Origin: Escherichia coli O127:H6 str. E2348/69
GTDB taxonomy: Bacteria > Pseudomonadota > Gammaproteobacteria > Enterobacterales > Enterobacteriaceae
Direction: 5' to 3' (one strand)
Assembly: GCF_000026545.1 (NCBI RefSeq)
Contig: NC_011601.1
Length of the DNA stretch: 64,000 bases
Below, in pieces: positions 40,325 to 40,651 of this stretch (the first letter of the stretch is position 1; every line of letters begins with the position of its first letter). A program made the translations under genes and the position numbers. The notes below the pieces were generated by a model. That model ran no database searches. It was not told the origin of the DNA and worked only from the letters and a program-made list of their open reading frames with translations.

Positions 40325-40651
40325 TTACTGTTGTTCAGAGGCAATCATCTCTTCGATTTCTTTGATGATTCCTGCAGCGTTTTTAATTGCGTCCTGCAAA
40401 GTGATTTCATAAACGTCGCGTGATTCGAAACGCTCGTTATCTTCCGGGGTAACTGCCACGGAGTGGATGATGATGGCCGCTTCGGCGATATCCTACGCCG
40501 TCAGGCGATTCTGGATACCGTCCGCGCCCTGGGTTTCAATTTTCACTTCATAACCGGCTTCTACCGCCGCTTCTTCCAGCGCCTGAGCGGCCATAAAAGT
40601 GTGAGCCAGGCCCATTGGGCAGGCACATAAGGCAATCAGTTTCTTACTCAT
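40325..40651 (-). pseudogene. fryB: PTS fructose-like EIIB component interrupted by an in-frame amber codon at codon 53
   Basis: Reverse strand reads [23 protein letters not shown]...[23 protein letters not shown]...EEMIASEQQ; the 56 codons after the TAG stay in frame to the natural stop. Confidence 0.75.

Follow-up and report, generated by a model that had tools for sequence, protein, structure and literature searches.

An amber codon at position 53 of fryB in Escherichia coli E2348/69 is a clonally inherited nonsense change in a repeatedly decaying fructose-like PTS gene

The gene fryB, which encodes the IIB component of a fructose-like phosphotransferase system (PTS), is interrupted by an in-frame TAG in the 64,000-nt stretch of E. 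coli O127:H6 str. E2348/69 DNA analyzed here (the window). The interruption raises the question of whether the gene has been lost, is still expressed through the stop, or only appears broken through a sequencing error. Our analysis favors loss: with a probability of about 0.93, fryB is a loss-of-function pseudogene that arose by one C-to-T change on an extant Gln53/Ala59 allele and then passed by descent through a shallow clone, with the Fry phosphorelay predicted to be broken. The parts of the gene are as follows.

40325..40651, minus strand: fryB pseudogene for a PTS fructose-like EIIB, 108 codons followed by the natural TAA (translation, Pfam, PDB and RefSeq flag)
40493..40495, minus strand: premature amber TAG, codon 53 of 108 (ancestral CAG, Gln53), the C-to-T change being window base 40495
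40496..40651, minus strand: translatable N-terminal fragment of 52 aa, with the C9-A-C11-PMGLAHT loop
40325..40492, minus strand: untranslated in-frame 3' part, 55 sense codons plus the natural stop
40475..40477, minus strand: codon 59, GCC (Ala) here; K-12 and most other strains have ACC (Thr)

Re-translation of the reverse strand yielded a frame that starts at 40651 (MSKKL...NRLTA), meets the TAG at 40495..40493 and continues through 55 sense codons to the TAA at 40327..40325. The initial annotation had described a TAG at 40493-40495 and a frame continuous to the stop at 40325..40327, and its coordinates, sequence and frame were all reproduced. In a mechanical ORF list the frame appears as two pieces, a TTG-extended ORF of 69 aa that ends at 40493 and a GTG ORF of 44 aa (40325..40459). 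Over positions 39000-42200, no Rfam family reached its gathering score, and no known structured RNA was found overlapping the fryB stop.

After restoration of Gln at codon 53, the 108-aa protein scored 70.8 bits (cut-off 23.6) on the Pfam family PF02302 (PTS_IIB), the match spanning residues 7-98 and profile positions 2-90. It also matched PDB entry 2KYR (K-12 FryB, fructose-like phosphotransferase enzyme IIB component 1) with E=2.8e-64. K-12 FryB, likewise a PF02302 protein, occupies the same locus (glk-fryB-fryC-ypdF-ypdE-fryA) and shares the Cys11 loop, and its 108-codon frame is identical to that of the window save at codons 53 (CAG versus TAG) and 59 (Thr versus Ala). In an alignment with 5DLE, a homologue of solved structure, Cys11 (LCAC11PMGLAHT) falls on the conserved Cys of the ACPxGxAHT loop (TACPVGVAHT in 5DLE). 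The phosphorylation-site motif, previously described as CxxC, is actually CxC (C9-A-C11), with Cys11 as the conserved site according to the alignment with 5DLE; the accompanying statement that the N-terminal 52 residues retain the phosphorylation-site Cys region was borne out, the Cys11 loop lying inside the fragment. The 52-residue product scored 42.7 bits against PF02302, lacking about 60% of the IIB domain. We judged the extent of truncation by this profile coverage, setting aside a single-sequence AlphaFold model of the restored protein, which was weak (mean pLDDT 56). The fryB of the window is a FryB orthologue by descent and, judged by its sequence, a non-functional member of the PTS EIIB type-2 family, because the stop at codon 53 leaves no uninterrupted frame across the whole domain and the product covers just profile positions 2-37 of 90.

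Comparison with orthologues identified the ancestral state of codon 53. The intact fryB of strain Es_ST80 differs from that of the window at two of 327 nt, C157T (CAG to TAG) and A175G (Thr59 to Ala). Codon 53 is CAG in ST80, in MCJCHV-1 and in seven further sequences (L009-L015), and Gln53 is present in the solved K-12 protein (2KYR). In two isolates, L009 and L013, fryB is intact and C157T is its sole difference from the window, with fryC identical (0 differences in 1,248 nt). The proposal of a single C-to-T nonsense change from CAG to TAG is thus supported by the CAG of the orthologues, by Gln53 of 2KYR and by the one-base difference from L009 and L013; the comparison with orthologues that had been suggested alongside it found CAG in the intact genes, with the stop unseen beyond the E2348/69 clone. 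The gene therefore has the form of a nonsense pseudogene, with a premature in-frame stop in place of the sense codon of its orthologues and the rest of the frame preserved.

Codon 59 lies 18 bp downstream of the stop, and we considered Ala59 as drift that followed inactivation. This was rejected, as an intact Gln53/Ala59 FryB (P0009) occurs on 31 contigs of several haplotypes in the larger protein collection, although among 5,426 complete E. coli genomes the exact 71-mer with G175 (the Ala59 codon) is found only in the three E2348/69 records. Because L009, L013 and P0009 carry the intact Gln53/Ala59 allele, the exact precursor is extant, Ala59 is older than the stop, and the nonsense change arose once and recently. 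The 3' part of fryB (40325..40492) is identical to the intact allele of L009 and L013 and thus bears no further decay.

A sequencing or assembly artefact, with C as the true base, has in our view a negligible chance of being correct, and nothing was found in its favor. A 501-bp query around fryB was 100% identical to NZ_CP059840.2, NZ_LT827011.1 and NZ_LT903847.1, all E2348/69 or derivatives, and at most 99.6% identical to every other record. These three assemblies, from different laboratories, amount to approximately two independent sequencings, since LT903847 is a construct derived from LT827011. The same T was found in three contigs from other assemblies (L006-L008), which have SNPs or an IS insertion at other positions, and the exact 52-aa product occurs on 172 contigs in 294 blocks. 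This recurrence argues against a base-call error, and the call at 40493..40495, which the initial annotation had asked to be verified, is T in all six assemblies. RefSeq names the fryB product of the E2348/69 records "PTS fructose transporter subunit IIB" and marks the gene in all three as a pseudogene, noting an "internal stop" (H4J01_RS07495, BQ9544_RS14175 and BQ9550_RS11380). The lesion is therefore already in public annotation: in E2348/69 the RefSeq/PGAP sequence is identical to the window and its pseudogene flag agrees with our reading, to which we add the ancestral allele, the clonal distribution and a check for suppressors.

The exact TAG-containing 71-mer was present in three of the 5,426 complete E. 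coli genomes, all E2348/69 derivatives, which first suggested a mutation private to the strain. We rejected this on account of the 172 contigs with the truncated product, some of them from clone-mates set apart by SNPs or an IS insertion. The apparent privacy is misleading because the complete-genome set holds no close relative of the window haplotype: in a whole-operon search, the E2348/69 fry haplotype had no relative more than 98.3% identical among complete genomes. L006-L008 each showed two differences from the window, at differing positions, over 6.2 kb (L006 and L007) or 4.6 kb (L008), with 0-1 differences among clone-mates in fryC and ypdF, and they are separate isolates of one shallow clone. 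Source names for the 52-aa product include E. coli 2362-75, and two of its accessions (EHU08575 and EHU09175) are numerically near those of strains DEC1A-E; 2362-75 and DEC1 we take to be O55:H6. From these strain names and serotypes, we infer that the carriers of the TAG allele are EPEC1. Because three contigs from other assemblies share the window haplotype, the allele marks a shallow clone, probably EPEC1, for which C157T could serve as a marker SNP. E2348/69 itself is an EPEC1-lineage isolate (PMC4464170).

A genuine stop could still be conditional, and we therefore asked, as had been suggested, whether E2348/69 carries an amber suppressor. K-12 tRNAs with mutated anticodons, covering seven classical types, were searched for as exact matches in complete genomes, a test that presumes E2348/69 tRNA genes equal to those of K-12 apart from the anticodon and that leaves out tyrU, prophage-borne tRNAs and non-tRNA suppressors. 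Within this scope none of the seven types was found in E2348/69. Across the complete genomes, there was no exact match to supF-type tRNA-Tyr(CUA), to amber tRNA-Trp(CUA) or to the ochre tRNAs tRNA-Lys(UUA) and tRNA-Tyr(UUA), no full-length exact match to supP-type tRNA-Leu(CUA), and a single exact match to supD-type tRNA-Ser(CUA), in strain DSM 498 only. The supE-type tRNA-Gln(CUA) was exact in 155 complete-genome records; among the 60 of these that were listed, most look, by name and size, like K-12-type laboratory strains. Given that number of matches, we read the E2348/69 tRNA-Gln locus directly (LT827011.1, 618156-618749); the anticodons of its three tRNA-Gln genes, one CUG and two UUG, are all wild type. 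The window itself holds six tRNAs, all sense (Ala, Val and Lys), and no suppressor was found within its 64,000 nt.

The glnX-metT cluster of E2348/69 (NZ_LT827011.1, 618156-618749) comprises six tRNAs, with a single tRNA-Gln(CUG), versus seven tRNAs and two tRNA-Gln(CUG) genes (glnX and glnV) in K-12 (L016, 696430-697133). With a single copy, a supE-type mutation would remove the only cognate reader of CAG in E2348/69. Some of the supE-type carriers among the matches listed have human, chicken, mouse gut or oil palm as source (for example WCHEC035053S1G0, EK2009, USML2 and the PG2018xxxx series), although their chromosomes are of K-12-typical size; these are probably laboratory K-12 derivatives or contaminants. 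At the supE-type match sites, RefSeq places no feature in any of the records listed.

The fryB stop resembles those of laboratory amber mutants rescued by supE or supF, in that an in-frame TAG derives from CAG and decoding by a supE-type tRNA would put back the original Gln. Those laboratory strains possess a suppressor, whereas E2348/69 has none of the seven types checked and only one tRNA-Gln(CUG). Expression of functional FryB at a reduced or regulated level, through a suppressor tRNA or efficient natural read-through, is accordingly very unlikely in our estimate. It would be consistent with the undamaged 55 downstream sense codons and the otherwise intact operon, and near-cognate reading of UAG by tRNA-Gln would restore the wild-type residue. 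However, E2348/69 has none of the seven classical suppressor alleles, the TAG occurs within a single shallow clone only, with no conservation among orthologues (3 of 5,426 complete genomes by 71-mer), and the intact downstream sequence is accounted for by the youth of the mutation, since the precursor allele is identical there. Low-level natural read-through of UAG could give trace full-length FryB, probably with Gln inserted; such traces are possible and unlikely to matter physiologically. That the single tRNA-Gln(CUG) reinserts Gln near-cognately, so that the EPEC1 clone makes trace wild-type FryB, we consider improbable; if true, the fry operon would be strongly attenuated yet usable under inducing conditions.

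Under the preferred reading, that of a loss-of-function pseudogene, release factor 1 would end translation at the UAG after residue 52, leaving a fragment that keeps the Cys11 loop and about 40% of the IIB domain and that would most likely misfold and be degraded. In a PTS phosphorelay, phosphate passes from EI, HPr and the IIA-like FryA to the IIB Cys and then to sugar bound by IIC. The relay from FryA through FryB to the FryC-bound substrate would hence be broken at the IIB step, and the Fry substrate would not be phosphorylated. FrwB, FrwD, FrvB and FruA are candidate paralogous fructose-like IIB proteins or domains that might substitute for FryB.

The surroundings of fryB are preserved, as listed here.

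39056..40303, minus strand: fryC, the PTS EIIC partner, intact; 415-aa ORF (WP_000985302.1), PF02378 on clone-mates, starting 21 nt past the fryB stop
37956-39041, minus strand: ypdF, intact; 361-aa ORF, in RefSeq without a pseudogene flag
36919-37956, minus strand: ypdE, intact; 345-aa ORF, in RefSeq without a pseudogene flag
34399-36894, minus strand: fryA/ptsA, intact; 831-aa ORF, in RefSeq without a pseudogene flag
40833..40856, minus strand: terminator-like hairpin immediately past glk, with a 10-bp stem and then a T-rich tail (consensus scan only, weak)

The minus-strand gene order glk, fryB, fryC, ypdF, ypdE, fryA is that of annotated genomes, with all genes but fryB intact, and glk, fryC, ypdF and ypdE carry normal protein accessions in the three E2348/69-derived RefSeq records. 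The terminator-like hairpin after glk suggests that a separate transcription unit begins with fryB. The untranslated mRNA past the stop (168 nt, followed by the 21-nt gap to the fryC ATG) might permit some Rho-dependent polarity, with a possible polar effect on fryC, ypdF, ypdE and fryA. A weak sigma-70-like site at 40308-40337 on the minus strand (TGAACA, an 18-nt spacer and GATAAT; 9/12 matches, consensus only) lies across the 3' end of fryB, a short way upstream of fryC; if real, it could give fryC some expression independent of fryB translation. The intact remainder of the operon fits a very recent mutation and also continued use of the other genes.

Further fryB lesions were traced from short FryB fragments in the protein collection. 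Codon 35 is changed from GAA to TAA (E35*) in L023 and codon 23 from CAG to TAG (Q23*) in L025, while a +1 frameshift at codon 21 was found in L024, L026 and L027. An N-terminally truncated 73-aa FryB ORF (P0025), called from more than one lesion type (L023-L025), occurs on 90 contigs. Like the amber codon studied here, these are point lesions of the same gene, independent of it and at other positions in other lineages. The three frameshift lineages also have a shortened fryC, of 336 or 363 aa versus 415, suggesting that decay of the fry operon is more advanced there, whereas the rest of the operon is intact in E2348/69.

The recurrent loss fits a dispensable, cryptic fructose-like PTS operon, and in reviews FryB and FryC still appear only under the label "fructose-like", without a defined substrate (PMC10305011). 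Such recurrence is compatible with selection as well as with neutrality, and every sampled member of the clone carries the lesion. Selection in EPEC1 might have favored losing FryB, or lowering fry operon expression through polarity, for example to avoid taking up a harmful substrate or to save cost. We hold such an adaptive inactivation to be highly improbable, as neutral loss of a cryptic operon would be expected to leave just such varied, recurrent lesions, with fryC decaying as well in some lineages, descent alone accounts for fixation within the clone, and no phenotype is known; loss of fryB would then be selectively neutral. The fryB stop is routine gene decay: already annotated, clonal and situated in a repeatedly decaying gene. 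That fryB has been hit independently several times is further evidence that E. coli can do without the cryptic fry operon. E2348/69 is the EPEC prototype, and its Fry fructose-like PTS, like that of its clone-mates, is genetically broken at the IIB component; therefore, fry-mutant phenotypes or K-12-based metabolic models may not transfer to it.

Several further features of the region were observed. Compared with the window over 37000-40025 and 40026-42000, the B2 strain MCJCHV-1 differs by 3-6 SNPs per kb in glk and fryB versus 32-35 per kb in fryC, ypdF and ypdE. This divergence begins at approximately 40025, inside fryC, and the distance between differences is often a multiple of three bases. 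The mosaic boundary inside fryC looks like an old recombination import.

The amber-bearing clone-mate L008 (GCA_900450255.1, UGGC01000001.1) carries a gene for a 457-aa DDE transposase (PF01609 and PF14706) at 1250-2623, between glk and fryB, corresponding to an IS element upstream of the fry operon. Its alignment to the window is split at the insertion, with an 11-base overlap (40853-40863) that could be a target-site duplication. Elsewhere in E2348/69 (NZ_LT827011.1, 715469-716889 and 737061-737423), RefSeq lists as pseudogenes a frameshifted ybhI, encoding an anion permease, and a prophage-borne rusA interrupted by an internal stop; the two lie in or near a lambdoid prophage that adjoins ybhC.
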